Of a stretch of 32,000 bases of DNA, positions 1,091-30,662 are shown piece after piece. The stretch comes from Candidatus Saccharimonadota bacterium. Lineage in GTDB: Archaea > Nanohalarchaeota > Nanosalinia > Nanosalinales > Nanosalinaceae. The stretch lies in NCBI RefSeq assembly GCF_029232205.1, contig NZ_CP107255.1:360001-392000 (forward strand). The letters run 5' to 3'. The notes beneath the pieces were generated by a model that had not been told where the DNA came from, did not search any database, and worked only from the letters and a program-made list of their open reading frames with translations. The number at the start of each line of letters is the position of its first letter. Position 1 is the first letter of the stretch. The translations under genes were made by a program, and so were the position numbers.

Positions 1091-2770
1091 ATGCTAACCG
1101 CATTAAGCAATTCGGCGTTAAGCAATTATTTTCTTGATCCGGCCTGGGTACTGGCGCTAGCAGCCCTAATACCGCTGATCATATTCTACCTGGTAAAGCC
1201 CAAGCCTGATGAAAAGATGATGCCCTCAATCCGGTTCTTCATGAAGGACAGGAAGGAAGGCAGGATAAAACAGGCCATATCAAAAATTCTGCAAAACCTC
1301 ATGCTGATATTCCATATACTCTTTGTCATAGCAGTGGTAGCGGCAGTAGCAAATCCTTTCATCAATGGCCCTTCAACTGCGGATAGGTCCGTAGTTGTAA
1401 TTGATAACTCTGCAAGTATGGAAGGATCTCTAGAAGATGCCAAGAACTTTGCAGTAGATAGGCTTGGAGGAACAAATACTGTAATCCTAGTAAACGATGA
1501 CGTAAAGGTTATAGCCAATGAAGCAACCAGGGCCTCAGCAAGAAGAGCAATTAATAATGTAGAACTGGAGGAAACTCCTACAGATCTCGCAAGAGCCCTG
1601 CAGATATCAAGAAACTATCGGGGCCAGCTAGTTCTTGCGAGCGACACAGATCACACGGCAAGCTCTAGAGAAACAACATCTGTAATACAGAATATCAAGG
1701 CCAATAGAGAAGTATACGTAATGGATGCAAAGACATCCAACTCCTGGGGATTCGCAGACCTAAACGTCAAAGAATCGTGGGTGGAAGTCAAAAACTATGA
1801 CGACAGTCAGCAACAGGTAAACATAGAGCTTGATGGCACAGCTGAGAGCGTTACACTCCAACCTGGAGAGGCCCGAAGAGTAGACATCGATCTAGAAAAA
1901 GGAGAGAACACAGTCTCGCTGCCAGAAGATGGAATGGCTGCAGACAACACTCTCTCAGTATACAGGCCTGAACAGTCAACACTTGAAGTAGCAGTAATAG
2001 CAGATAGTGAAAACAGATACCTGATGAAGGCCTTTGAACTAATTAACCAGACTGATCCAGAGTTCTACCAGTCTCCTATAGAGAGCTTTCCAAGTGCAGA
2101 TGTCTATGTGATCGGACAGTCGGAGAATACGCTATCACAGACCGTGAACAGCGTGGAAAACCGTGTACAGAATGGTGCAACAGCAGTAGTAATGGCAAAT
2201 GAAGGTCTCGAACCAGAATACTACGATCATCTGCCGGTAGAAAATATAGGAGAGCGGACAGAGGCAAATGTAGAGTTCAGAAAACCTAGGAAAATCAACA
2301 TAGGAAACACAGAAGTATACAATCTCACAGTTACGGGAAGAGGCCTTTCCGATCCGCAGAACGCGCTAGTTCACGGAACTCACGGCCAGGGAGATATCCT
2401 AGTCTACAATATTAACGATGAAGACTTCAGAAGAGACTTCCTTTACCCGGTTTTCTGGCGAAACGTAGTAGATGCCTACTCCGAAGTAAAAGATGCAGAA
2501 GATCTAAATCTTGAGACAGGCCAGACAGTAAGAGCTGACGGAAAGCCAGTTGAACTAAACAGAACAGGCTTCCACGAACTAGGAGGCCAGAAATACACAG
2601 CAAACCTGCTAAACGATGATGAATCCTCTACAGAATCATCTACAATAACTTCAAGCGAATCAGCAACATCAACAGTGCCAAAAAGCATTCAGAATCTGGC
2701 AGCATTACTGGTTCTCCTGCTAGCACTTACAGAAGCAGGATACCTCTACTACATAGGTGATATGCAATGA
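1091..2770 (+). CDS. BatA-like membrane protein with vWA domain
   Basis: The N-terminus LALAALIPLIIFYLVKPKP...PSIRFF resembles the BatA-type N-terminal double-TM region. vWA MIDAS residues are present: DNSAS (nt 1403-1417), a downstream TPTD and SDTD. C-terminal TM segment: AALLVLLLALTEAGYLYY. Confidence 0.75.
   Translation: MLTALSNSALSNYFLDPAWVLALAALIPLIIFYLVKPKPDEKMMPSIRFFMKDRKEGRIKQAISKILQNLMLIFHILFVIAVVAAVANPFINGPSTADRSVVVIDNSASMEGSLEDAKNFAVDRLGGTNTVILVNDDVKVIANEATRASARRAINNVELEETPTDLARALQISRNYRGQLVLASDTDHTASSRETTSVIQNIKANREVYVMDAKTSNSWGFADLNVKESWVEVKNYDDSQQQVNIELDGTAESVTLQPGEARRVDIDLEKGENTVSLPEDGMAADNTLSVYRPEQSTLEVAVIADSENRYLMKAFELINQTDPEFYQSPIESFPSADVYVIGQSENTLSQTVNSVENRVQNGATAVVMANEGLEPEYYDHLPVENIGERTEANVEFRKPRKINIGNTEVYNLTVTGRGLSDPQNALVHGTHGQGDILVYNINDEDFRRDFLYPVFWRNVVDAYSEVKDAEDLNLETGQTVRADGKPVELNRTGFHELGGQKYTANLLNDDESSTESSTITSSESATSTVPKSIQNLAALLVLLLALTEAGYLYYIGDMQ
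2756..2761 (+). promoter_or_regulatory. Shine-Dalgarno GGTGAT, 5 nt upstream of ATG 2767
   Basis: Complementary to the archaeal 16S 3' end (..GAUCACC..). It lies inside the upstream gene, next to an ATGA stop/start overlap, which fits translational coupling. Confidence 0.55.
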
Positions 2771-5079
2771 TAACCTTCGAGCACTCCCTAGGACTGATAC
2801 TGGTTTTAATCAGCTTTACAGGCCTCTACGCTGCATACAGGGCTGAGGAAATATACGGAGAGATACTGGGCCTGACAAGATTTCTACTACTGTTTTTACT
2901 GGCTCTAGCGGTTGCAGGCCCTCAGATACAGATGGCGCAGGAAAGAATGAGAACTCCAGAAGTCAATATTCTGGAGGATAACTCCCGGTCCACACAGTTC
3001 ATGCAGGATGACAAGGTAAGTTTCCAGGAAATCCAGACAAACAGAAATATTATTGCATCAGGAAACAACTCAGAAATGAAGAACAGCATCCTCAACAGTA
3101 TTCAACAGGATGGAGCATACCTTATCGTCTCCGATTTACAGACAGACGAGGACATGAATGAGGTAATACGGAAGGCCAATAGAAACAATGCGAGTATAAG
3201 CTTCCTGAAACCGGAAATGACATCCGAACACGCAATAACAATAGAAGGCCCGGAGCAAACAGTACCCGGCGCCAACAACCAGTACACCGTAAAACTCAGC
3301 TCCACAAAAGGAGGATCAGTACCGGTAGAAGTCAGAGTAGATGGAAACCAGATACACAGCGGCCGAATAACATCAACATACAACTTTACAAGAAAATTTG
3401 GCTCAAAAGGCCACCACAAAATACAGGCCTCAATCGACGTCAACGACCAGGAATCCTCCAACAATGCATACTACAAAACAGTAGAAGTAACCAAAAAACC
3501 TGAAATACTGGTGATAGGCCAGAGCTCCAGCCTTGGAACAGATCTAAGCGAATACTTCAGACTGGAGTACACAAGCTCAGTACCAGAAGACATGTCAGAC
3601 TACGACGCAGTACTACTCAAAGAAGACGTACCGGAAGAAAACCTGATAGAATACGTTTCACAGGGAGGAGGCCTAGTCTACACAGGAGATCACCAGAATT
3701 CATATGATGTTCTGCCAGTAAAGGAAGCTGATGATAGTGAAGAGAGTAGTAAGGCTGCAAGAGTAATAATGGCGGTAGATACCTCCGCTAGCTTCTACAG
3801 TGAGAGAAGCAGGACCAAGGAGAAGGCTAGATATGCTGCAAAATACTTTGTTTCTGCATTGTATCGTCAAAGCGTTGGTTCAAAAGTAGCAGTCATTAAT
3901 TATGGAGGTACTGTTCAAGGTTCGAGTTACGTCCCGAGAATAATGCGTAATCCAGGAGAACCAGCATTCCTTAGTATGGTCAATAGTGAGGATAAAAACA
4001 GAGTCTTTTCGAGGGTAGATTCTCTTGATGGAATTGGTGGAGCGATACAAAGTTATGGTCTCAGAGCTTCTAAAGAGCTTGCTGAGAAGGAGCAATCTAA
4101 ATCAACTATTGTGATGATAACTGATGGTCGATTTGAAGACGTAGAGAAATTCAACACGCAAAGAACTCAAGATGATATTAAAATTGAATCTGAACAGGAT
4201 AAACAGAACTTCCGTGATATTGCTATGAGTTTGGATGATAGTAAAACCTCTCTTTGTTTCCTAACGATAGGAGGTGGAGCTGATACAGCCTTCTTGAATG
4301 GGTTCGTTGATAGGACCAATATAGTATCTTTTGAAGATATGAGAAATCAAGGACGCTTTTGCGATCTTCTAGGGGGAGGAGGTAATTCTGGAGCTGGTAG
4401 AGTCTATGCTGTAAATAATCAACATTTTATCTCCAGAGGAGGTATAAATCCTGACTTGGCAGTGGCAGGGACTTATAACGCTCGGTTAAGGCCTTCAGGG
4501 AATTTAATACTGGCAACTGGAGAAAATAAGCCTGTTCTTGCTACATGGAGATATGGGTTAGGAAGGGTTGCGGCATTTACAACTAGAGATTCTAATTTAG
4601 GGGATATGATGCGTGGTGACCCTTCTTCTGTTGTCAGAACATTTTCCTGGTCCGTAGGAGAGATAGATAGAGAGGGCCGCTGGATAAAAGTTTCTTCAAC
4701 GAGAGTTGGAGGCCAGAAACCTGAAGTTGAGGCATCCTACAGTATTGAAGGCCTTACACGTGATGCGGATGGAACTTACTCGAAGACTCTGGATCCTGAA
4801 GGCCTTGGCTTCCATGAATTCAACGGCGTGCCTTACAGCTACAACTATAACTCTGAAATAGAGAATATAGGGTATGATAGCAGGATTGAAAGAATTGCAT
4901 CGGAGACAGGGGGCAAAGTGTACGAGCCATCTCAAAAAGGCCAAATTGTCGAGGATCTTCAGACTTTCAGTGATGAGCGAGTCGTCAGGAGAACTTCTCT
5001 AACGCCTTACCTGCTGATAGCAGCACTGATTGTATTCCTGGGAGAGGTAGGGTTCAGAAAGATGAAGGGCAGAAAGTAG
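2767..5079 (+). CDS. Large membrane-anchored vWA-domain protein (Bat-like, with GATase1-like/DUF1355-like segments)
   Basis: N-terminal TM helices; vWA with DTSAS (nt 3778-3792) and MITDG. EILVIGQSS...GGGLVYTGD and ATWRYGLGRVAAFTT resemble the amidotransferase-like modules of BatA/BatB-type proteins. C-terminal TM plus basic tail: LLIAALIVFLGEVGFRKMKGRK. Confidence 0.7.
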   Translation: MITFEHSLGLILVLISFTGLYAAYRAEEIYGEILGLTRFLLLFLLALAVAGPQIQMAQERMRTPEVNILEDNSRSTQFMQDDKVSFQEIQTNRNIIASGNNSEMKNSILNSIQQDGAYLIVSDLQTDEDMNEVIRKANRNNASISFLKPEMTSEHAITIEGPEQTVPGANNQYTVKLSSTKGGSVPVEVRVDGNQIHSGRITSTYNFTRKFGSKGHHKIQASIDVNDQESSNNAYYKTVEVTKKPEILVIGQSSSLGTDLSEYFRLEYTSSVPEDMSDYDAVLLKEDVPEENLIEYVSQGGGLVYTGDHQNSYDVLPVKEADDSEESSKAARVIMAVDTSASFYSERSRTKEKARYAAKYFVSALYRQSVGSKVAVINYGGTVQGSSYVPRIMRNPGEPAFLSMVNSEDKNRVFSRVDSLDGIGGAIQSYGLRASKELAEKEQSKSTIVMITDGRFEDVEKFNTQRTQDDIKIESEQDKQNFRDIAMSLDDSKTSLCFLTIGGGADTAFLNGFVDRTNIVSFEDMRNQGRFCDLLGGGGNSGAGRVYAVNNQHFISRGGINPDLAVAGTYNARLRPSGNLILATGENKPVLATWRYGLGRVAAFTTRDSNLGDMMRGDPSSVVRTFSWSVGEIDREGRWIKVSSTRVGGQKPEVEASYSIEGLTRDADGTYSKTLDPEGLGFHEFNGVPYSYNYNSEIENIGYDSRIERIASETGGKVYEPSQKGQIVEDLQTFSDERVVRRTSLTPYLLIAALIVFLGEVGFRKMKGRK

Positions 5080-5145: not shown

Positions 5146-5871
5146 ATGGGAGTTTTGGATGATGTGAAAGATGCTGTAGGAGGAAACTCCGACGGCAACA
5201 ATAACAACTCAGGATCTTCTTTTGGAAACTCAGATTCTAGCTCAGATTTCGACAGCAGTTTCGGAGATTCTGGAAATAACTCAATGAACGACGACTTCTC
5301 CTCAGGCCCAGAAGACAGCAGCATGGGAGGAAGCCCACAGAATCCAGGTGGAGGCCCTAACAATCCTCAGCAATCCCCAAACAATTCTCCAGGACAATCA
5401 TCACCAGCTCCCTCACAATCAGGACAAGGACAGGGCCTTCAGGGAGGTATGAATACTACAGATGACAGTAATCCTCCAAGAAACAATGGACCGCCTGGAG
5501 GAAACAGTCCTCAGGGAAGAGGCCAGAATAGTCCTCAGCCCTCAAGCAGCAGATCTCTGGACTCTCCATCAGGTGGTGGAAGGAACCAGAGAAATCAGGG
5601 AGGAGGCCAGAGCCCGAGCAATCGTTCTCTTTCAGGAGGCCGGCAAAGTTCTGGAGGGTCCTCGAATGCGCAGGCTGGAAGACCGCAGAGCGGAAGCTCT
5701 CAGCCACAGTTAAGCAGCAATACTCGGAAGAAAATGGAGAATGCAGGAATGTCTTCTCGAGGCAGTCAGTCAGTAGCTGATTCTCGGGATGATTTTGAAG
5801 AGCTGAAGTCGCAGAATGAACAGATAATTGAGCTTCTTAAGAGAATCAATGACTCGCTGAACACGAGGTAA
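5146..5871 (+). CDS. Low-complexity S/G/N/Q/P-rich, predicted disordered protein with a C-terminal amphipathic helix
   Basis: 241-aa ORF with its own TATA. The three overlapping ORFs in other frames or on the opposite strand are low-complexity shadows. The C-terminal DDFEELKSQNEQIIELLKRINDSLNTR is the only ordered-looking segment. Confidence 0.6.
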   Translation: MGVLDDVKDAVGGNSDGNNNNSGSSFGNSDSSSDFDSSFGDSGNNSMNDDFSSGPEDSSMGGSPQNPGGGPNNPQQSPNNSPGQSSPAPSQSGQGQGLQGGMNTTDDSNPPRNNGPPGGNSPQGRGQNSPQPSSSRSLDSPSGGGRNQRNQGGGQSPSNRSLSGGRQSSGGSSNAQAGRPQSGSSQPQLSSNTRKKMENAGMSSRGSQSVADSRDDFEELKSQNEQIIELLKRINDSLNTR

Positions 5872-8477: not shown

Positions 8478-8499
8478 ACTTGTTTTTCAGCTATAGGAA

Positions 8500-8508
8500 C
8501 TTTTTATG
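8500..8508. promoter_or_regulatory. Single AT-rich TATA-like element (CTTTTTATG) at the midpoint of the 53-bp dcd / peptidase divergent spacer
   Basis: Its centre (8504) is 27 nt from ATG 8531 (+) and 27 nt from the dcd start at 8477 (-). Confidence 0.4.
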
Positions 8509-8530
8509 CCTTCACGCCGCAAATACTTTC

Positions 8531-9988
8531 ATGAAAAAGCTGTTGACAATTCTTTTTCTACTCGTATTTTTCAGTTTAACAGCCTCAGCTGACATATACC
8601 ACGAGGCCCACGTCGCACCTGACTACATGCAGCTTAATACTTCTATAGGCCTTGAATGCGAGAGCAACTGCCCGGTAAATCGGTGGACGCTTACCTGGCA
8701 GGTACCGGAAACCGCAGAGATCGTCTCTATAGAGGATTCTGTAGGAGAGATCGAAGATTACAGTATAAATGGCAGAAACCTGCAGATAACAACCAATACT
8801 GGGCCAAAAAGAATGAATGAGACAATAAGGATTGTAATGAATATTTCAAAGGATTCCGAGGAAATATATAACGGCCTTTACAAGAGAGAGATTTCTCTGC
8901 CTGGTTTTGAGGGAGATGAGAGCCGTGGAGTTCTGAAAGTTGATAACCTGATCTCTGGCTGGAAGAGCTACGGATTCGATACTTCTTACGCTAATAATAC
9001 TATGAAATTCAGGGGTGAAGGCCCGGCTTCTCTACGTGTCAAGTTCGGAGAAGGTGAGAAGACTCAATACTACGAGTTCTTCGGGGATTACACCGGGAAT
9101 ACTTCTCAGGCCTACGAAATTTCTATAGGTACTATCGGTGTTGAGCAGGAGTTTGACGGGTTTCCTGTGGCCTCGATGCCTGATGAGGTCTATGATACTA
9201 GGGCCAATTCGTGGAGTGCGGGAGAGTATATTGGTGGATCGATGATGATCCGTAGCGATCTTGGAGATAATTACGTGCCGATCTTGGCGCATGAGACTGT
9301 TCACGGCCTTAATGATAGAGAGTTGAACTGGGATAGAACTTCTTCGGCTTACTTCGATGAGGGAACTTCTGAGTATGTGGAGGCTCAGGTCAGGAAGAAG
9401 TTGAGCGCGGAGAACAGTGATGTTAGGCCTCCTGGAGAGATTTTTGGCGAGGATATCAGGTGGGATCCTGATCCAAGAGATAATACTTACAGCCTGGTAC
9501 CTTCTCGAGGTGATAGGGATGAGCTCTGGAATTACTACCGTAATGATCGTGAATTCATGAAGGAGTGGTCCAGCAGGATGGCTGAGCACAGAAGCTTTGG
9601 TTATGCTTACTCCGAGCTTGTTATCAGGAATTATGTGGCTGAGGGAGGCCGTTTGTCCGATGTTTACAGAGGCCTTAAGGTCAGCAATAAGGTGACGGAT
9701 CCCGACGTGAAGTGGGGTGTTTTCTCCAGTCAGATGGATATGACGCCATGTAAATACGAAAGCAGGGAGAGATTCGACAGCTGTCTTGATAGAATAAACG
9801 AGTACGATTATCCTGTGTATTCTGCGAAGCCTACGAGGCAGAAAGAGAATCTTACGGTTGAGAGACTGGAGATACCGGAGAACAGATTCAGGGGAGAGAC
9901 TGGAATGGTTGATTCTCTGAAGTACGATATTCAGGGCCTTGTGGACTACTTCAGAGAGCTTCTGAAAACTGTTTTCTCAAGTATTTAG
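8531..9988 (+). CDS. Secreted zinc metallopeptidase, MA-clan gluzincin (HExxH-x18-E)
   Basis: Start moved to ATG 8531, giving the signal peptide MKKLLTILFLLVFFSLTASA. HETVHGLNDRELNWDRTSSAYFDEGTSEY has exactly 18 residues between the second His and the Glu of DEG, as in M1/MA peptidases. GGSMM upstream resembles GAMEN. Confidence 0.7.
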   Translation: MKKLLTILFLLVFFSLTASADIYHEAHVAPDYMQLNTSIGLECESNCPVNRWTLTWQVPETAEIVSIEDSVGEIEDYSINGRNLQITTNTGPKRMNETIRIVMNISKDSEEIYNGLYKREISLPGFEGDESRGVLKVDNLISGWKSYGFDTSYANNTMKFRGEGPASLRVKFGEGEKTQYYEFFGDYTGNTSQAYEISIGTIGVEQEFDGFPVASMPDEVYDTRANSWSAGEYIGGSMMIRSDLGDNYVPILAHETVHGLNDRELNWDRTSSAYFDEGTSEYVEAQVRKKLSAENSDVRPPGEIFGEDIRWDPDPRDNTYSLVPSRGDRDELWNYYRNDREFMKEWSSRMAEHRSFGYAYSELVIRNYVAEGGRLSDVYRGLKVSNKVTDPDVKWGVFSSQMDMTPCKYESRERFDSCLDRINEYDYPVYSAKPTRQKENLTVERLEIPENRFRGETGMVDSLKYDIQGLVDYFRELLKTVFSSI

Positions 9989-22902: not shown

Positions 22903-25614
22903 ATGAAGAAAGACATATTTTTGCTTATGGGCTTGAAACTTGGTAAAATCTTTACAGTTTTTATTCTGGCCATACTTCTGGTTTCAACAGGTGCTGCCTA
23001 CACTAACTGGGACCCTGGGGAGCCCAGTAATACAGGAGGAAATGAGGAGTGTGCTGAGATGTTCACTACTAGCTATTGGAATGATCAGCCCTGTGATGAG
23101 AATCTGCCTGCGATCTGTGAGGCGTCTGATGGTACTTACAGTACTACCGGGAGTATGTCTTGGATGGCTGCGCGAGATGTCTGTGAAAGTAGAGGGGAGC
23201 ACCTGGTAGTTATTAATGATCAGTCTGAGCAGAATTATCTTCAGGCTAACTATGGCTATGGGTGGATAGGTTATCGTCAATCTAGTACTGGTTCTGAGCC
23301 TGGAGGTGGATGGGGGTGGAGTGCAGATCTGGAGTCTGAGGTAGTAAGTAGTAGCTCCAGTGTTCAGGATGTTGATTCTGATGGGGATTATGTTAGGGGT
23401 CGTCCGGTAAAAACTACGTTCACCTATGAAGTCCAGAATCCATACAAACCTATTGATACTGCTTTTGCACTTGATGGTTCTGGGAGTATGGGCAATTCTC
23501 GCTACGATGTGGCCGATGCTACAAAGGATTATATAGATGGAGCCAATACAGGTCAAGGAGATACTATTGCAGTATCAGAACTTGGAGAACAGCTTCAAAG
23601 TTTGACCACTGATAAATCTGATGCTAAAAGTGCTGCGGATCGTTACTGGGATGAAAGTCGGAGTTCGTGTATCGGCTGCGGTATTTCTAAGGCTCATGAT
23701 CATCTTAAGGAGGGCAATAATCCTATCCAGGTGATTGTAGTTCTTGCTGATGCACAGGGAGGTTACAGCGGTCAGGCCGATGATGCAAGAGATGATGGAG
23801 TAGAAGTCCATGGGATCATGTATCCTGGGGCCGATATCAACAACTTCGAGAAAGTTACTGATTCTACCTGTGAAATGAATTCTGATGAGAACAGTGACGG
23901 AGATAACTGCTGGTACGGATCTTCAGGCACGATAGATGAGGTCTATGATTCTATTCAGGAAGAAGTTCAGGCGGAAGCAACTGCTGATTTGAATATGGTT
24001 ATGCCGGATTATACATATACTCAAGATAGCTTCGATAGTCTTGAAAATCATGCTGATGGTGAAAACTATATCAGAGAAGATATAGATGCCAGCAGCGGAA
24101 CACATACAGAGACCTTCACATGGCGCCCACTTACTGATGGTAGCGGTAAGGTGGTGAAAACAGGAAGTTCATATATAGATTTTCGATCAGATGGGAGTAC
24201 CACGACCTATAATTTTCCATCCTCACATACTGAAGATATCTACTATGTAGATCTTAATGTATCTGACCACTCTCTTCTAAGGCGGAACGGCATGATAACT
24301 GTAAATCTCACGCTCCGGAATAAAGGCAATATAGAGTCTAAAACAAGGCCGTTACATCTGACAGATGAGGATAACAATATTTTATCGCGTCAGATAGATC
24401 CTATACCTGCAGGAGGAAAACACTATGAAGTATTCCGGGTAGCTGAAAATAATCTAACTTTCAGAGATGCACAGCGCATAACAGCTCATATAGATCCTAA
24501 TACTGGAGGTTTCTGGTCTACAGCACCTCTAGGAGAGGGTGAGGCCCTAGAACCTGATGAAACCAATAACGATATGCCTATAGGTTATCCACCGCTTCTT
24601 TCATCTACTTCGCCATCAACAGTTAACTGGGATGATAACTTCCGATTCAGCCTGAATTTTGATCACTACTATCCTGATCAGGTACAGGGAAATTATACTG
24701 TATTAGAAGATGGCAATAAAATTAGAGATGAGGCTTCCTACAGCAAACCTGCAGAGGGGACACTGAGAACTAACCAGATAGATAATGATGAGTCCAGAAT
24801 ATACTACAATATTACGAGCAAGATAAGAGGGCCGCAGGGAGCTTTATCTGTTTACAATCATACTTTCTACGTCAGTAATCCGAGGCCTGAGATCTATGCT
24901 GCTGAGCCGAAGAACTTGAACAGTGTGTATCAGAATCCTGTGCAGTTGAGGGCCTTTGTAGATGATGAGAATAATGTTGAGAATTCTAATGGCCTTAATG
25001 TTAGTATCTATAATCAGGAGACTGGAAATCTTCTGAAGGAGGTTGAGGGTGTAGCTCCGAGGACACCTGTATCTTATTCCTGGTCTGAGGCTGATGAGGC
25101 GGGTAAGACTTATCGCTGGAATGTGACTGTTTCTGATGACTGGGATACTGTTTCCGAGGTTTTCAGGTTTGTGAAAGGTTCAAGAGTGAGTTACAGGACT
25201 GAGACTGAGAGCAATTACAGTTACTCTGGTGTCGTTACTTCTTCGGGAGGTCAGGGAGCTTTCAGGTACAGTGTACGGAATCGTCTTGAATTCAACAAAA
25301 ATAATATGCGGACTACACTTTCAGGAGTAGATGCCCGGTTTGAGAGTACTGGAACAGGTACCAAGAGCTATGCGTTGCCTAAAGAATCGTCAAAAACCTT
25401 CAATATAATAGTTAATCCTGGAAATGGGCTTGAAGGCCAACAATATCTTACGGTCACCACTACTAACGAAGACCTAGGCATTAATAACACCGATAAGATT
25501 CCTATATTTATCCGCAGTGATGCTAAAAGAAGTAGAGGGGTTCCGGGCCTATCAATATTGAATATTTTGTTTATGATTCTGGCCTCTACCCTTTATTTCG
25601 CTGGTTCTCACTGA
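22903..25614 (+). CDS. Secreted surface protein: signal peptide, permuted C-type-lectin-like domain, vWA, CARDB-like domain, beta-rich repeats, VPGL+TM C-terminal tail
   Basis: Signal/TM FTVFILAILLVSTGAAY; CTLD motifs (see the separate feature); vWA DGSGS (23473-23487); CARDB-like LTLRNKGN...IPAGG...EPDETNND; C-terminal RSRGVPGLSILNILFMILASTLYFAGSH. An alternative start at ATG 22927 (MGLKLGK...) is possible. Confidence 0.8.
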   Translation: MKKDIFLLMGLKLGKIFTVFILAILLVSTGAAYTNWDPGEPSNTGGNEECAEMFTTSYWNDQPCDENLPAICEASDGTYSTTGSMSWMAARDVCESRGEHLVVINDQSEQNYLQANYGYGWIGYRQSSTGSEPGGGWGWSADLESEVVSSSSSVQDVDSDGDYVRGRPVKTTFTYEVQNPYKPIDTAFALDGSGSMGNSRYDVADATKDYIDGANTGQGDTIAVSELGEQLQSLTTDKSDAKSAADRYWDESRSSCIGCGISKAHDHLKEGNNPIQVIVVLADAQGGYSGQADDARDDGVEVHGIMYPGADINNFEKVTDSTCEMNSDENSDGDNCWYGSSGTIDEVYDSIQEEVQAEATADLNMVMPDYTYTQDSFDSLENHADGENYIREDIDASSGTHTETFTWRPLTDGSGKVVKTGSSYIDFRSDGSTTTYNFPSSHTEDIYYVDLNVSDHSLLRRNGMITVNLTLRNKGNIESKTRPLHLTDEDNNILSRQIDPIPAGGKHYEVFRVAENNLTFRDAQRITAHIDPNTGGFWSTAPLGEGEALEPDETNNDMPIGYPPLLSSTSPSTVNWDDNFRFSLNFDHYYPDQVQGNYTVLEDGNKIRDEASYSKPAEGTLRTNQIDNDESRIYYNITSKIRGPQGALSVYNHTFYVSNPRPEIYAAEPKNLNSVYQNPVQLRAFVDDENNVENSNGLNVSIYNQETGNLLKEVEGVAPRTPVSYSWSEADEAGKTYRWNVTVSDDWDTVSEVFRFVKGSRVSYRTETESNYSYSGVVTSSGGQGAFRYSVRNRLEFNKNNMRTTLSGVDARFESTGTGTKSYALPKESSKTFNIIVNPGNGLEGQQYLTVTTTNEDLGINNTDKIPIFIRSDAKRSRGVPGLSILNILFMILASTLYFAGSH
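22999..23328 (+). other. C-type lectin-like domain with permuted segment order (aa 33-142 of the 903-aa protein)
   Basis: YTNWDPGEPSNTGGNEECAEMFTTSYWNDQPCDENLPAICE (canonical C-terminal half: EPN-like EPS, WND, 3 Cys) comes before MSWMAARDVCESRGEHLVVINDQSEQNYLQ...GWIGYRQ...GGGWGWSAD (canonical N-terminal half: W-A-C-G-HL-I-E-FL-WIG-WxW). Confidence 0.65.
24871..24984 (+). repeat. Near-identical nucleotide tract shared with 27276-27389 (copy 1)
   Basis: Hand alignment gives 108 of 114 nt identical, including synonymous sites. The immediately upstream coding sequence of the two genes is clearly diverged. Confidence 0.85.
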
Positions 25615-25661
25615 TCTGCAGTTGTTAACTTCTTTAATCGGAGGAAACAAATTATTGAATA

Positions 25662-28019
25662 ATGAAGAAAGGCCTGCTGGCTTTTATTGTTGTTCTGTAT
25701 CTTGCTCTTGCTTCAGGTGCAAATACGTATGCAAATGACTTGAGCTCTTCTGCAGTGGATGTTGATGGGGATGGCGAGTTTGTGATGGGTAGAGAAGTTG
25801 TTACCAGTTTTAATTATACTATAAACAATCCTTATCGGCCTATTGATACGGCGATTGTGATCGACGAGTCTGGCAGTATGAGCGGTGTGATTGGCTCGGC
25901 TAAACAGGGCGCCAAAGATTATGTGGATGCTACTAATACTTCTTCCGGCGATAGAAATGCTGTGGTGGAGTTTGAAAGTGATGCAGATATTCTTGAATCT
26001 CTTACAACCAGTAAACAGGATGCTAAGGATGCTATAGATACTATAAATGATGGTGGAGGAACGGATCTTCCTGCGGGCGTTTCGAAAGGCCACAGCGCGT
26101 TAACTAGTGCTAGCGATCCTAATCCTATCCAGGTAATGATTGTGCTTGCAGATGGAGGTGGTGGAGATCCCGGTACTGAGGCCGATGATGCCAGGGATGA
26201 TGGTATTGAGGTGCATGGGATAATGTATGGTTCGGGGGCCAGTACCAGTGAGTTTGAAAGCATGACAGATTCCTCTGATTGCAGTAAGAACTCCAATGAA
26301 AACAGTGATGGTGACTCTTGCTGGTATGCTGAGACTGGATCGATAACCAGTGTCTACGAACAGATTAGAGAACAGGTAGATCAGGACGTGCAGGGAGAGC
26401 TCGGTGTAGTACTTCCTGATCATGCCTATGTTGATTCAAGCTACGATAGCTCTACTGATCTTTCTGGCCCAAATACACGGTATAAGCTAACAGATATCCC
26501 AACAGATGATGGGGAGTACAAAAGAAGTTTCAGCTGGTATCCAACAACCAAGGGCTATGAAACTATAAAGACGGGAGAATCCTACCTTAAGCTAGATGTA
26601 CAAGGTTCAACAGACTATTACAACTATACTTCATCTTTCGATAGAGATATCAAGTATGTGGACTTCAGTATTCAGGACACAAATATTGAAAGAGAGGAAA
26701 CAGAGATCAATGTAAACTATACTGTCGCCAATGATGGAAATATTGCTTCTAGGCCAAGAGATTTGAAAATTATCGATGGTGAAGGCCATATAATTAGTCG
26801 TAATGTAGACCCCATCCCTGCGGGAGGCACTTTCTTCGATAACTTTACTGTAGGCGCTAACCACAATGTTTTCCAGGATTCTAATAGGATTACGGCCTTT
26901 ATGGACTACCTTGGTTTCTTCAACTCAATTCCTCCTGGAGAAGGAGGCACGCTAGAACCAAATGAGAACAACAACGACCAGTTAATGGGCTATCCTCCCC
27001 GGTTGATAAGCACTTCACCGTCAACTGTTGAGTGGAACGATACTTTCAGGTTTAGCCTGGATTTCGGCCATTATTATGCAGATCAGGTTCAGGGAAAGTA
27101 CTCGGTGTACGAAAACGGTACTTTGATCAGAGATAACGTAAGTTTCTCCAAGCCAGCAGAGGGAACTGTACAGACTAATGATATAGATAACGATAATTCC
27201 ACGATTTACTACAATATCACCAGCTATCTGGAAGGTCCTAGCGGCGCCACAGCTATCTACAGAGACAGTTATTATGTCAGTAATCCGAGGCCTGAGATCT
27301 ATGCTGCTGAGCCGAAGAATTTGAACAGTGTGTATGAGTCTCCTGTGCAGTTAAGGGCCTTTGTAGATGATGAAAATAATGTTGAGAATCCGAATAATCT
27401 GAATGTGACTGTCCGTGATTATGAGACAGGCCGTCTTCTTCTTTCAAAGAAAAATGTCTTGCCTCGTTCTTCTGTAAGTTATGATTGGGTTTCTGCAGAT
27501 CAGGATGGCAAGACTTATCGCTGGAATGTGACTGTTGAGGATCGATGGCATCAGGTCTCTGAAGTTTTCAGGTTCAAGAAGTCAACAAGATTCAGCTACA
27601 GAACTGAGACTGAGAGCAATTACAGTTACTCTGGAGTTGTGGCCTCTTCGGGGGGTCAGGGAGATTTCAGGTTTACTGTCAGTAATCCTCTTGATTTTGA
27701 CAAGGACGACATGCAGACAAGCTTGTCAGGAGTGGATGCCAAGTTTGAAGGCACGGGCACGAACACGAAAAGTTATTCTCTCCCGAATGGAACTACCAGG
27801 ACTTTCAATATTATTGTCTCGCCGAACTCTTCTCAAACCGGCCAGCAATACCTGCAGATTACAACCACGAATCAGGATTTAAACATCAATAATACAGATA
27901 ATATTCCCATCTACATTAGAAAGGATGCGAAGAGAAGTAGAGGAGTTCCAGGCCTTGGAATGCTTCAGCTAATGGTGCTGCTGGCTTCCTCGGCGTTAAT
28001 ATTTTTCAGAAGAATTTAA
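25662..28019 (+). CDS. Secreted surface protein, paralog of 22903-25614 without the lectin module: signal peptide, vWA, CARDB-like, beta-rich repeats, VPGL+TM tail
   Basis: MKKGLLAFIVVLYLALASGANTYA signal; vWA DESGS...GGGTD...LADGG (complete MIDAS); NYTVANDGN...IPAGG...EPNENNND; colinear with the upstream paralog to the C-terminus RSRGVPGLGMLQLMVLLASSALIFFRRI. Confidence 0.8.
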   Translation: MKKGLLAFIVVLYLALASGANTYANDLSSSAVDVDGDGEFVMGREVVTSFNYTINNPYRPIDTAIVIDESGSMSGVIGSAKQGAKDYVDATNTSSGDRNAVVEFESDADILESLTTSKQDAKDAIDTINDGGGTDLPAGVSKGHSALTSASDPNPIQVMIVLADGGGGDPGTEADDARDDGIEVHGIMYGSGASTSEFESMTDSSDCSKNSNENSDGDSCWYAETGSITSVYEQIREQVDQDVQGELGVVLPDHAYVDSSYDSSTDLSGPNTRYKLTDIPTDDGEYKRSFSWYPTTKGYETIKTGESYLKLDVQGSTDYYNYTSSFDRDIKYVDFSIQDTNIEREETEINVNYTVANDGNIASRPRDLKIIDGEGHIISRNVDPIPAGGTFFDNFTVGANHNVFQDSNRITAFMDYLGFFNSIPPGEGGTLEPNENNNDQLMGYPPRLISTSPSTVEWNDTFRFSLDFGHYYADQVQGKYSVYENGTLIRDNVSFSKPAEGTVQTNDIDNDNSTIYYNITSYLEGPSGATAIYRDSYYVSNPRPEIYAAEPKNLNSVYESPVQLRAFVDDENNVENPNNLNVTVRDYETGRLLLSKKNVLPRSSVSYDWVSADQDGKTYRWNVTVEDRWHQVSEVFRFKKSTRFSYRTETESNYSYSGVVASSGGQGDFRFTVSNPLDFDKDDMQTSLSGVDAKFEGTGTNTKSYSLPNGTTRTFNIIVSPNSSQTGQQYLQITTTNQDLNINNTDNIPIYIRKDAKRSRGVPGLGMLQLMVLLASSALIFFRRI
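27276..27389 (+). repeat. Near-identical nucleotide tract shared with 24871-24984 (copy 2)
   Basis: Same alignment as copy 1. Further exact matches: 25105-25131 = 27510-27536 (27 nt) and 25198-25229 = 27603-27634 (32 nt). Confidence 0.85.
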
Positions 28020-29906: not shown

Positions 29907-30662
29907 CTAACGATTTTCTCTTATTCTATCTTCTATAAAACTTCCACTGTACCAGTCGGAAGGTTTTAGGGCCTCGCTCCTGTCATCTTTTGCTGGTTGA
30001 TATGCTTTGGACCAGTTCCAGTAGCTTGCTCTTCTGTCTCCTGTGTCAAACTTCACGCTTTCAAGTGCTCTATCGGCAGGAATAACTGCTTCTCCTACTA
30101 TGAATGTTTCTGCAATTTTACCTTTTTTCTTTTTCACTATATCTCTTATAGGTGCGTCTACCGCCTCCTTGACTTGTTCTGGATAAGATTCTCTTGGCTG
30201 ATGGACAATTGCATGTAGCAGGCCTTCCTTTAGATTGTTTCCATTCATTTCGTAGTCAAGAGTATTTTCGTTGTAGCTCCCGCCTGCAAGCCTTGCCATG
30301 GCAGGCCCTTTCATGTATATACCTCCATCGGAAATATAGTTACCTCTGCTTGCTACACGGATAGCGCATTTAGATTGAACTGGTATTCCTTCAAAAACTC
30401 CATCAGTTACCACGAGATCAACTTCACCATCATCTACTATTTCCATGTTGTAGGTATCCTGAAGATATTCTTCTCCCATTCTTCCTATGGCCTCGGTATG
30501 CGGGGAAAAATCCATTCTATCAGAGACATCATTCTCTCTTTCTAGCTGTGTGTGGCCGGGATGCCATGTTCTGGAGCTACCTCCTAGCGCCTCAAAAATA
30601 TCGTTAAATGTGAGGTTGTCTGCCTCTTCAGTTCTAAAGGATTTTTCTCTCACTTGGCTCAT
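29907..30662 (-). CDS. Hypothetical protein; possible PD-(D/E)xK nuclease-like core
   Basis: 251-aa ORF with a TATA-like CTTAATCTTTA about 28 nt upstream. GRMGEEYL ... VDLVV ... IPVQSK gives an E / D / QxK spacing like restriction-endonuclease-fold proteins. Pattern match by eye only. Confidence 0.55.
   Translation of the reverse strand: MSQVREKSFRTEEADNLTFNDIFEALGGSSRTWHPGHTQLERENDVSDRMDFSPHTEAIGRMGEEYLQDTYNMEIVDDGEVDLVVTDGVFEGIPVQSKCAIRVASRGNYISDGGIYMKGPAMARLAGGSYNENTLDYEMNGNNLKEGLLHAIVHQPRESYPEQVKEAVDAPIRDIVKKKKGKIAETFIVGEAVIPADRALESVKFDTGDRRASYWNWSKAYQPAKDDRSEALKPSDWYSGSFIEDRIRENR

Follow-up and report, generated by a model that had tools for sequence, protein, structure and literature searches.

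The question raised by this locus is what two adjacent, related surface-protein genes do for the archaeon that carries them. The genes, here called P1 (22903..25614, + strand, 903 aa) and P2 (25662..28019, + strand, 785 aa), lie in a window of 32,000 nt (contig NZ_CP107255.1, positions 360,001 to 392,000; coordinates below are those of this window unless a locus name precedes them). Our answer is that P1 and P2 are tandem paralogues of a Nanohaloarchaeota-specific surface protein whose job would be recognition of, and adhesion to, another cell surface, the candidate being the surface layer (S-layer) of Haloferax; we put the probability of this reading at roughly 0.55. All domains of the two proteins are of known kinds; what is new is a permutation of the classic C-type lectin fold in P1, apparently undescribed, and the family itself, also undescribed.

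The initial annotation had given two same-strand genes 47 bp apart, encoding 903 and 785 aa and colinear over ~760 aa. The open reading frame (ORF) coordinates are exactly those, and in BLASTP the proteins are 55% identical over 759 aa (P1 151-899 = P2 28-781, E = 0). The intergenic spacer (25615..25661, + strand, 47 bp) has a GGAGG motif and no terminator-like site, from which we infer co-transcription of P1 and P2. P2 is identical to a record of Candidatus (Ca.) Nanohalovita haloferacivicina BNXNv (WEL23276.1 / WP_347721188.1, ‘vWA domain-containing protein’, vWA standing for von Willebrand factor type A). P1 is annotated in GenBank as WEL23275.1, a 708 aa protein whose start at Met196, in the region 22903-23490, leaves P1 without its signal peptide, its lectin and DxSxS, and in RefSeq as WP_347721187.1 (895 aa, start at Met9, ‘lectin-like protein’). 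The guess that the organism is an ectosymbiotic nanohaloarchaeon proved right, as both proteins are found in records of BNXNv, an obligate ectosymbiont cultivated attached to Haloferax lucentense (PMC10266531). An opposite-strand ORF of 190 aa (22984..23556) overlaps the 5′ region of P1 and is probably spurious.

In both P1 and P2 a signal peptide is followed by the vWA head, a series of five beta-sandwich modules, of which the second is CARDB-like, and a C-terminal VPGL motif with a hydrophobic anchor. Each protein has a hydrophobic signal-like segment at the N-terminus and a hydrophobic segment at the C-terminus; both are strongly acidic and have 10-16 N-X-S/T sequons. The putative signal peptide of P1 (22903..22995, + strand, about residues 1-31) includes a hydrophobic segment at 4-35, with cleavage placed by inspection only between STGA and AY. 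Pfam profile scores and the terminal hydrophobic segments thus agree with the layout of domains and with the topology, secreted and anchored, that had been proposed; both proteins are putatively exposed at the surface.

The N-terminal carbohydrate-recognition module, said to be present in the first gene only, is indeed restricted to P1: Lectin_C (PF00059) matches P1 with 60.8 bits (gathering cutoff 22.6, E = 2.4e-16, Pfam) and does not match P2. What the earlier reading of this module overlooked is the swapped order of its halves. In the native order the domain gives two Lectin_C stretches, the C-half (profile positions 67-106 of 107) ahead of the N-half (2-64), with 65.3 bits, and the canonical N-to-C order of PF00059 elements is not followed. 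The C-terminal half, placed first (22996..23127, + strand, residues 32-75), contains EPS, Glu, WND, Cys2, Cys3 and Cys4; the N-terminal half, placed second (23128..23340, + strand, residues 76-146), contains beta1, alpha1 (with Cys1), alpha2, WIGY and GGWGW. A Ser-rich linker and a conserved pre-vWA segment, delimited by alignment, follow (23341..23436, + strand, residues 147-178). Among chains of solved structures, P1 residues 31-75 align with the C-terminal part (EPN...E...WND...C...CE) of MBP, SP-D and langerin, and residues 81-140 align with the N-terminal part of C-type lectin domains, the match being residues 19-74 of the CLEC10A chain.

We un-permuted the sequence in silico by placing P1 residues 76-146 ahead of residues 29-75. 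The product gives one Lectin_C stretch covering profile positions 2-106 of 107 (75.6 bits, E = 6e-21), gapless at the junction, and aligns over its full length with PLA2R (3e-24), langerin, CLEC10A and others. As an end-to-end Lectin_C match in one piece is obtained with the un-permuted sequence alone, these profile alignments identify the P1 lectin as a C-type lectin domain in circular permutation, the C-half leading. No second lectin half was found upstream of P1, where an opposite-strand gene ends at 22866. A permuted C-type lectin domain was not found described in the searchable literature, and with the P1 lectin a circular permutation of a canonical C-type lectin domain seems to be recorded for the first time.

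In C-type lectin domains the first and last strands lie side by side and pair with each other, and the permutation would therefore be sterically simple: a short ASDGT turn joins the old termini and the chain opens before the long-loop region. An AlphaFold2 (AF2) model built with nine permuted modules has a predicted template modelling score (pTM) of 0.62, with core residues 40-100 at a predicted local distance difference test (pLDDT) of 80-91, and shows the order beta3-beta4-beta5-turn-beta1-alpha1-alpha2-beta2. The four canonical cysteines are kept (C50, C64, C72 and C94), and at Ca2+ site 2 four of the five SP-D ligands are identical in P1, with EPN changed to EPS (Ser for Asn) and the Glu and WND retained. 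The P1 lectin is thus predicted to bind glycan in a Ca2+-dependent manner. EPN-type sites favour mannose-type sugars; the EPS variant has reportedly been seen in a tunicate galactose-binding lectin, so the sugar specificity of P1 cannot be predicted.

With the lectin module (123 aa) as query, a word-indexed search for homologues returned no matches, and an exhaustive search was required. The exhaustive HMMER search against 1.84 billion representatives produced 5104 matches; among the best 150 of these, canonical arrays account for 100 and the permuted register for 12. Half of the 12 permuted proteins (P0061, P0067, P0091, P0116, P0134 and P0135) carry clean single C-half-then-N-half units, which match the P1 lectin at 45-53% identity in this search; P0030 and P0058 have two permuted units each. 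In a nine-sequence alignment the units are 41-51% identical to the P1 lectin and all share its boundaries, with unrelated flanks. In the permuted units, found in at least eight other proteins, the four Cys, WND, the Glu and the core Trp/Gly are invariant, and EPN is present in most. The two named carriers are proteins of Ca. Nanosalina and Ca. Nanohalobium. P0116 and Q2, a protein of another nanohaloarchaeal lineage described below, have the signal-peptide-to-AYTNW junction of P1; as P0116 has this junction, the comparison suggests that signal peptide and lectin move together as one 5′ cassette. P0058 and P0030 are small proteins with tandem C-N-C-N lectin halves, for which two folds are conceivable: a pair of permuted domains, or a single canonical domain whose ends complement each other. 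Both proteins may represent intermediate stages in how the permutation arose. A search of the IMG/VR collection turned up no viral relative of the module, and viral origin or sharing of the module was rejected on this result.

The vWA domain claimed for both proteins scores above the Pfam gathering thresholds in each. For VWA and VWA_2 (PF00092 and PF13519; gathering cutoffs 23.8 and 27), P1 has 27.5 and 29.6 bits and P2 has 49.7 and 48.8 bits. The P2 domain (25827..26366, + strand, residues 56-235) has a complete DxSxS...T...D metal ion-dependent adhesion site (MIDAS), DESGS...GGGTD...LADG, along with a family-specific C...ENSDGDSCWY. The P1 domain (23437..23955, + strand, residues 179-351) retains DGSGS and the Asp of LADA and has SSCIGCG (CxxC) at the Thr position, so that the MIDAS is incomplete by the loss of Thr. 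All 24 family members have DxSGS and the MIDAS Asp; the Thr is kept in 21 of them, P2 included, and is replaced by SSCIxCG in P1, M3_22 (P0002) and P0003. A single-sequence search of the Protein Data Bank (PDB) with the P2 vWA gave no match, and a profile was required. The profile matches mussel PTMP1 (8e-19), BatB-like structures, CLCA1, vWF A3, Mfa5, TRAP, alpha2delta, anthrax toxin receptors and SpaC; judged by these matches, its relatives are extracellular ligand-binding vWAs. For the P2 vWA the predicted partner is a protein ligand, contacted at an acidic side chain through a bound Mg2+. Since P1 is without the MIDAS Thr, glycan and protein binding are probably split between the paralogues and not combined in one protein.

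The heads are followed by stalks of five modules, B1-B5, at 23956..25527 in P1 (+ strand, residues 352-875; CARDB-like module ~24241-24591; modelled via the P2 equivalent) and at 26367..27932 in P2 (+ strand, residues 236-757; CARDB-like module ~26652-26996; modelled with AF2). The AF2 model of P2 236-757, made from an 18-sequence alignment, is an all-beta array of five sandwich modules with mean pLDDT 79.4. Foldseek matched it to generic multi-immunoglobulin (Ig)/macroglobulin arrays (C5, alpha2-macroglobulins, CD109 and ICAM-1) with E ~1e-11 and TM scores of 0.15-0.25; as modelled, the stalk is a modular array without a specific known relative. The C-terminal anchors are equal in length, as had been claimed, with a post-VPGL tail of 20 residues in each: KRSRGVPGL plus 20 mostly hydrophobic residues in P1 (25528..25611, + strand) and RSRGVPGLG, a hydrophobic helix and RRI in P2 (27933..28016, + strand). 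All 24 members end in [VIAL]PG[LI] plus ~20 hydrophobic residues, usually with a basic (R/K) end; this tripartite tail of PG motif, hydrophobic helix and basic end is a PGF-CTERM-like layout. By analogy, we hypothesize that the tail may be processed by an archaeosortase; the literature search found no paper dealing with archaeosortases of nanohaloarchaea.

Searches with single-module hidden Markov models (HMMs) indicated which parts of the stalk are particular to the family: the first three modules (B1, the CARDB-like one and B3) are peculiar to it, and B4, B5 and the tail are shared with the lectin-bearing P0061, P0091 and P0067 (B5 plus tail, E = 1e-34 to 1e-39). The nanohaloarchaeal lectin proteins P0061, P0067, P0091, P0116 and P0134 have the B4-B5-VPG tail cassette of the P1/P2 family. 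The cassette, which no NCBIfam model matches, may serve the lineage as its own module for stalk and sorting.

For the family search we used a profile built from 11 members; the homologue search was word-indexed. The 22 full-length clusters found (771-991 aa) score at least 637 bits; the next scores, at most 128 bits, belong to vWA-only proteins. All named full-length members are nanohaloarchaeal, including QGA80290.1 of Ca. Nanohalobium constans, and a genome scan (one genome per species) yielded five loci, all in Nanohaloarchaea. In these searches the vWA head-on-stalk family was found in Nanohaloarchaeota only. The full-length architecture was not found in haloarchaea by either the profile search or the genome scan, the homologue search being word-indexed; a wide spread of the architecture in free-living haloarchaea, which the initial annotation had named as a finding that would overturn its proposal, was thus not seen. 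In the searched literature there is no co-mention of nanohaloarchaea and von Willebrand domains, and the publications on the genomes of BNXNv, SVXNc, LC1Nh and Nha. antarcticus are silent on the vWA family and treat LamG, PKD and SPEARE proteins instead, in line with the earlier remark that the architecture is not a described one.

The family gene occupies a syntenic slot, with MetRS, Ham1 and HAD genes upstream and S17e, DUF211, VIT1 and AlaX-like genes downstream, and is single-copy in most genomes. At two loci from more distant nanohaloarchaeal metagenome-assembled genomes (L002:8924-9895 and L003:8924-9895) a NurA-domain gene stands between HAD and the vWA family gene. In SVXNc, the sister organism of BNXNv, the slot holds SVXNc_0640 (‘Uncharacterized membrane protein’), for which the transcript value is 1581 vs 3368 for MetRS (PMC10266531, table S1). 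If SVXNc_0640 is the orthologue, orthology being assigned by position only, the family is expressed in co-culture.

The comparison of family members separates heads from stalks. Between P1 and P2, head identity is 35-53% and stalk identity 58-77%. The metagenomic proteins P0003 and P0162 (L007:5933-8287) are 93-100% identical outside the vWA and 33-65% within it, one vWA being of the CxxC type and the other of the Thr type; from these identities the pair is a head swap on a near-identical backbone. P0005 has a stalk 88-93% identical to those of P0003 and P0162 and a vWA nearest to that of P2. The modules of P1 are discordant: its vWA goes with M3_22 and P0003, its pre-vWA segment, B1 and CARDB-like module with P0004, and its stalk with P2. 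Heads are mosaic between strains, and stalks are more conserved within each genome. P0177 (residues 1-190) and P0178 (residues 1-230; L008:10001-12976) have N-terminal extensions of 135-175 aa in the lectin position with no Pfam family; P0178 is single-copy in the syntenic slot.

A second tandem pair is present in the same slot of another nanohaloarchaeal lineage (L006, 8870-13968) in reversed order: P0004 (796 aa), 14 bp and Q2 (897 aa), the latter colinear with P1, permuted lectin included. In both pair-bearing genomes the identity of paralogue stalks within the genome is 0.67-0.82 vs 0.49-0.56 across genomes. Codon identity at identical residues, stalk vs head, is 0.56 vs 0.43 for P1/P2 (p = 0.016) and 0.45 vs 0.35 for the L006 pair (p = 0.07), which lends modest support to gene conversion in the stalk.

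Attachment to the host is the reading best supported by architecture and evolutionary pattern, and P1 and P2 would then be putative binders of the host S-layer. In the mechanism that we propose, the N-terminal signal peptide would export each protein, and the C-terminal [V/I]PG[L/I] motif with its helix anchor would hold it in the membrane, so as to display the vWA head at the far end of the five-module beta-sandwich stalk. P2, with its complete MIDAS, would contact a protein ligand at an acidic side chain by way of Mg2+; P1, having lost the MIDAS Thr and gained a permuted lectin at its mature N-terminus, would bind glycan with Ca2+. The target would be the glycosylated S-layer of the Haloferax host; since BNXNv lives attached to Haloferax, the Haloferax S-layer glycoprotein is the most plausible one. 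The S-layer N-glycan of Haloferax volcanii ends in mannose; Haloferax S-layer glycans have been characterised and glycosylation mutants exist. The heads would diversify by module exchange, with stalk and anchor staying adapted to the symbiont's own envelope.

Several results weigh against the recognition of another cell surface, or against the domain calls on which it draws. The proposed glycan-plus-protein apparatus for the host S-layer retains its layout, its anchored topology and its nanohaloarchaeal origin; its binding chemistry holds less well, as the MIDAS Thr is lost in P1 and the lectin of Q2, 40% identical to that of P1, has a degraded Ca2+/sugar site (GAPDG, WED). Sugar binding is therefore not conserved among the lectin-bearing members. 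The vWA of Q2 is 21-28% identical to all others and is without a canonical MIDAS. The AF2 model of the lectin is moderate (mean pLDDT 65.5, sugar-site loop <50), and Foldseek of this model against the PDB gave no match with E < 1, a null that is uninformative given that the aligner is sequence-ordered and the loop region of the model poor. The CARDB-like domain that had been described as ending EP(D/N)E(T/N)NND stands in part: the terminal motif is present in both proteins (LEPDETNND in P1, LEPNENNND in P2), but the CARDB profile (PF07705) is sub-threshold in P1 (13.7 bits vs 22.7) and reported no match in P2. Homologues P0163 (28.9 bits) and P0173 (22.8 bits) are at or above the 22.7 cutoff, the profile matched six of eight family members at E <= 1 (best E = 6.5e-05), and the AF2 stalk model has a beta-sandwich at the CARDB position. 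NCBIfam sorting-signal models run against four tails returned no family at E <= 10. Finally, the gene is conserved, syntenic and usually single-copy among housekeeping genes, unlike the strain-specific LamG/PKD islands, and therefore a core envelope role fits it as well as the role of an adhesin.

Such a core role is the main rival, one that we regard as rather unlikely: the proteins would serve the symbiont itself, as an S-layer-associated scaffold or spacer that binds its own glycosylated S-layer or neighbouring nanohaloarchaeal cells. Besides the conservation of the gene across the phylum, the stalk and anchor cassette common to other surface proteins and the greater likeness of stalks within a genome than between genomes agree with it, as do the heavy investment of nanohaloarchaea in their own surface glycosylation (PMC10266531) and, by positional inference only, the transcription of the SVXNc syntenic-slot gene at a level comparable to its neighbours. 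However, head mosaicism and vWA swaps on near-identical backbones are more typical of proteins that face an external, changing partner, and the SVXNc S-layer candidates named by the authors of the BNXNv study lie at other loci. The S-layer proteins that these authors list are BNXNv_0277, 0530, 0625 and 0988 (PMC10266531).

The same mosaic heads on conserved stalks, and the duplication with divergent heads in two lineages, would also be expected of a surface protein shaped by viruses, either as a virus receptor or as a shield, in an arms race with nanohaloarchaeal viruses, which exist and encode receptor-binding proteins. This is improbable: no virus is linked to the P1/P2 family, the lectin module has no viral relative in IMG/VR, and the retention of adhesive domains (a MIDAS vWA and a Ca2+-site lectin) would be left unexplained. 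Even less credible is the capture of polysaccharides or glycoconjugates, in which the heads would bind polymers from xylan or chitin degradation by the host for uptake. The organism does live on sugars released in polysaccharide-degrading consortia, an alpha-amylase gene is located ~5 kb upstream and the sugar-site motif is kept in the lectin; still, there are no adjoining glycoside hydrolase, transporter or binding-protein genes, most family members are without a lectin, and vWA MIDAS domains bind proteins, not polysaccharides. That the lectin segment is a non-functional, non-folding remnant, two half-domains left from a decayed tandem array, we consider very improbable, for although tandem arrays dominate the top matches (and the query can align across their domain junctions), although the model is moderate with no fold match and although the Q2 site is degraded, the unit is kept with identical boundaries and unrelated flanks at 41-51% identity in nine proteins, its four Cys, WND and core Trp/Gly are invariant, the un-permuted sequence matches the profile gapless at the junction, and adjacent terminal strands make the permutation sterically simple.

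With recognition of another cell surface as the preferred reading, a broader possibility can be put forward tentatively. The vWA head-on-stalk protein could be a principal host-recognition determinant in Nanohaloarchaeota, its head modules (vWA types, permuted lectins and other N-terminal domains) being exchanged on a constant stalk and anchor and tracking host S-layer proteins and glycans, with the permuted lectin as a hitherto unrecognised folding unit born in the lineage. The determinants proposed so far for host recognition by DPANN archaea, all of them putative, are LamG/PKD proteins, type IV pili-like loci and the giant SPEARE proteins. The P1/P2 family would be a compact and tractable candidate, with phylum-wide conservation, recognisable Mg2+-MIDAS and Ca2+-lectin chemistries and a Haloferax co-culture; the shared nanohaloarchaeal stalk and anchor cassette may, in addition, be a lineage-specific surface-sorting signal.

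Comparison with known systems places the two proteins between several types. Pilus and fimbrial tip adhesins (of the SpaC, RrgA/GBS104 and Mfa5 types) have, like P1 and P2, an extracellular MIDAS vWA on Ig-like modules and a C-terminal sorting or anchor signal, and the vWA profile weakly matches Mfa5, SpaC and GBS 3tw0; the vWA is inserted in an Ig domain there, whereas it is N-terminal in P1 and P2, which are moreover archaeal. A sortase-dependent pilus tip adhesin was rejected, as neither protein has LPXTG and no pilin or sortase genes are among the neighbours. Animal-type C-type lectins (PF00059: collectins, langerin, CLEC10A and PLA2R) have in common with P1 the four Cys, EPx, Glu, WND and the WIGL core; in P1, however, the halves are swapped, EPS replaces EPN/QPD, and the domain forms the mature N-terminus of an archaeal membrane protein. 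The tail resembles that of PGF-CTERM/archaeosortase A substrates such as the Haloferax S-layer glycoprotein, a system described in PMC5744192, in its Pro-Gly motif, helix and short basic end and in its place on a secreted, glycoprotein-like surface protein, but the motif of the P1/P2 family is PG[L/I] and not PGF (ASGIG in Q2).

The nanohaloarchaeal LamG/PKD and giant SPEARE proteins are likewise secreted or anchored multi-Ig surface proteins proposed for host contact; they differ in having other domains and strain-specific island loci, and the studies concerned do not mention vWA or PF00059. The C-type-lectin-fold proteins of DPANN archaea that are diversified by diversity-generating retroelements (DGRs) offer, as P1 does, a surface lectin-fold ligand-binding module of an episymbiotic archaeon; these are CLecs of the FGE-type subclass and depend on a reverse transcriptase (RT) together with a template repeat, whereas the P1 family diversifies by module exchange. 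A DGR variable protein was rejected for P1, its lectin DNA having no repeat in the window and no RT gene being among the neighbours. BatA/BatB-type proteins are prokaryotic membrane-associated vWA proteins, and BatB-like structures match the family vWA profile; they differ in their N-terminal BatA membrane domain, and they lack the Ig-like stalk, the lectin and the C-terminal anchor.

Elsewhere in the window, 1091-2770 and 2767-5079 (+ strand) form an unrelated tandem vWA pair; the first gene has BatA_N, VWA_2 and DUF7407/DUF7408, the second (770 aa) a weak VWA_2 match (E = 5.5e-05), and the two together look like a Bat/aerotolerance-type membrane vWA operon. ORFs without a Pfam match are present at 5146-5871 (+ strand, 241 aa), 8480-9988 (+ strand, 502 aa) and 29907-30662 (− strand, 251 aa). 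The last of these is 31% identical to its counterpart in M3_22, a close relative, vs 72-88% for the flanking genes and is thus fast-evolving.

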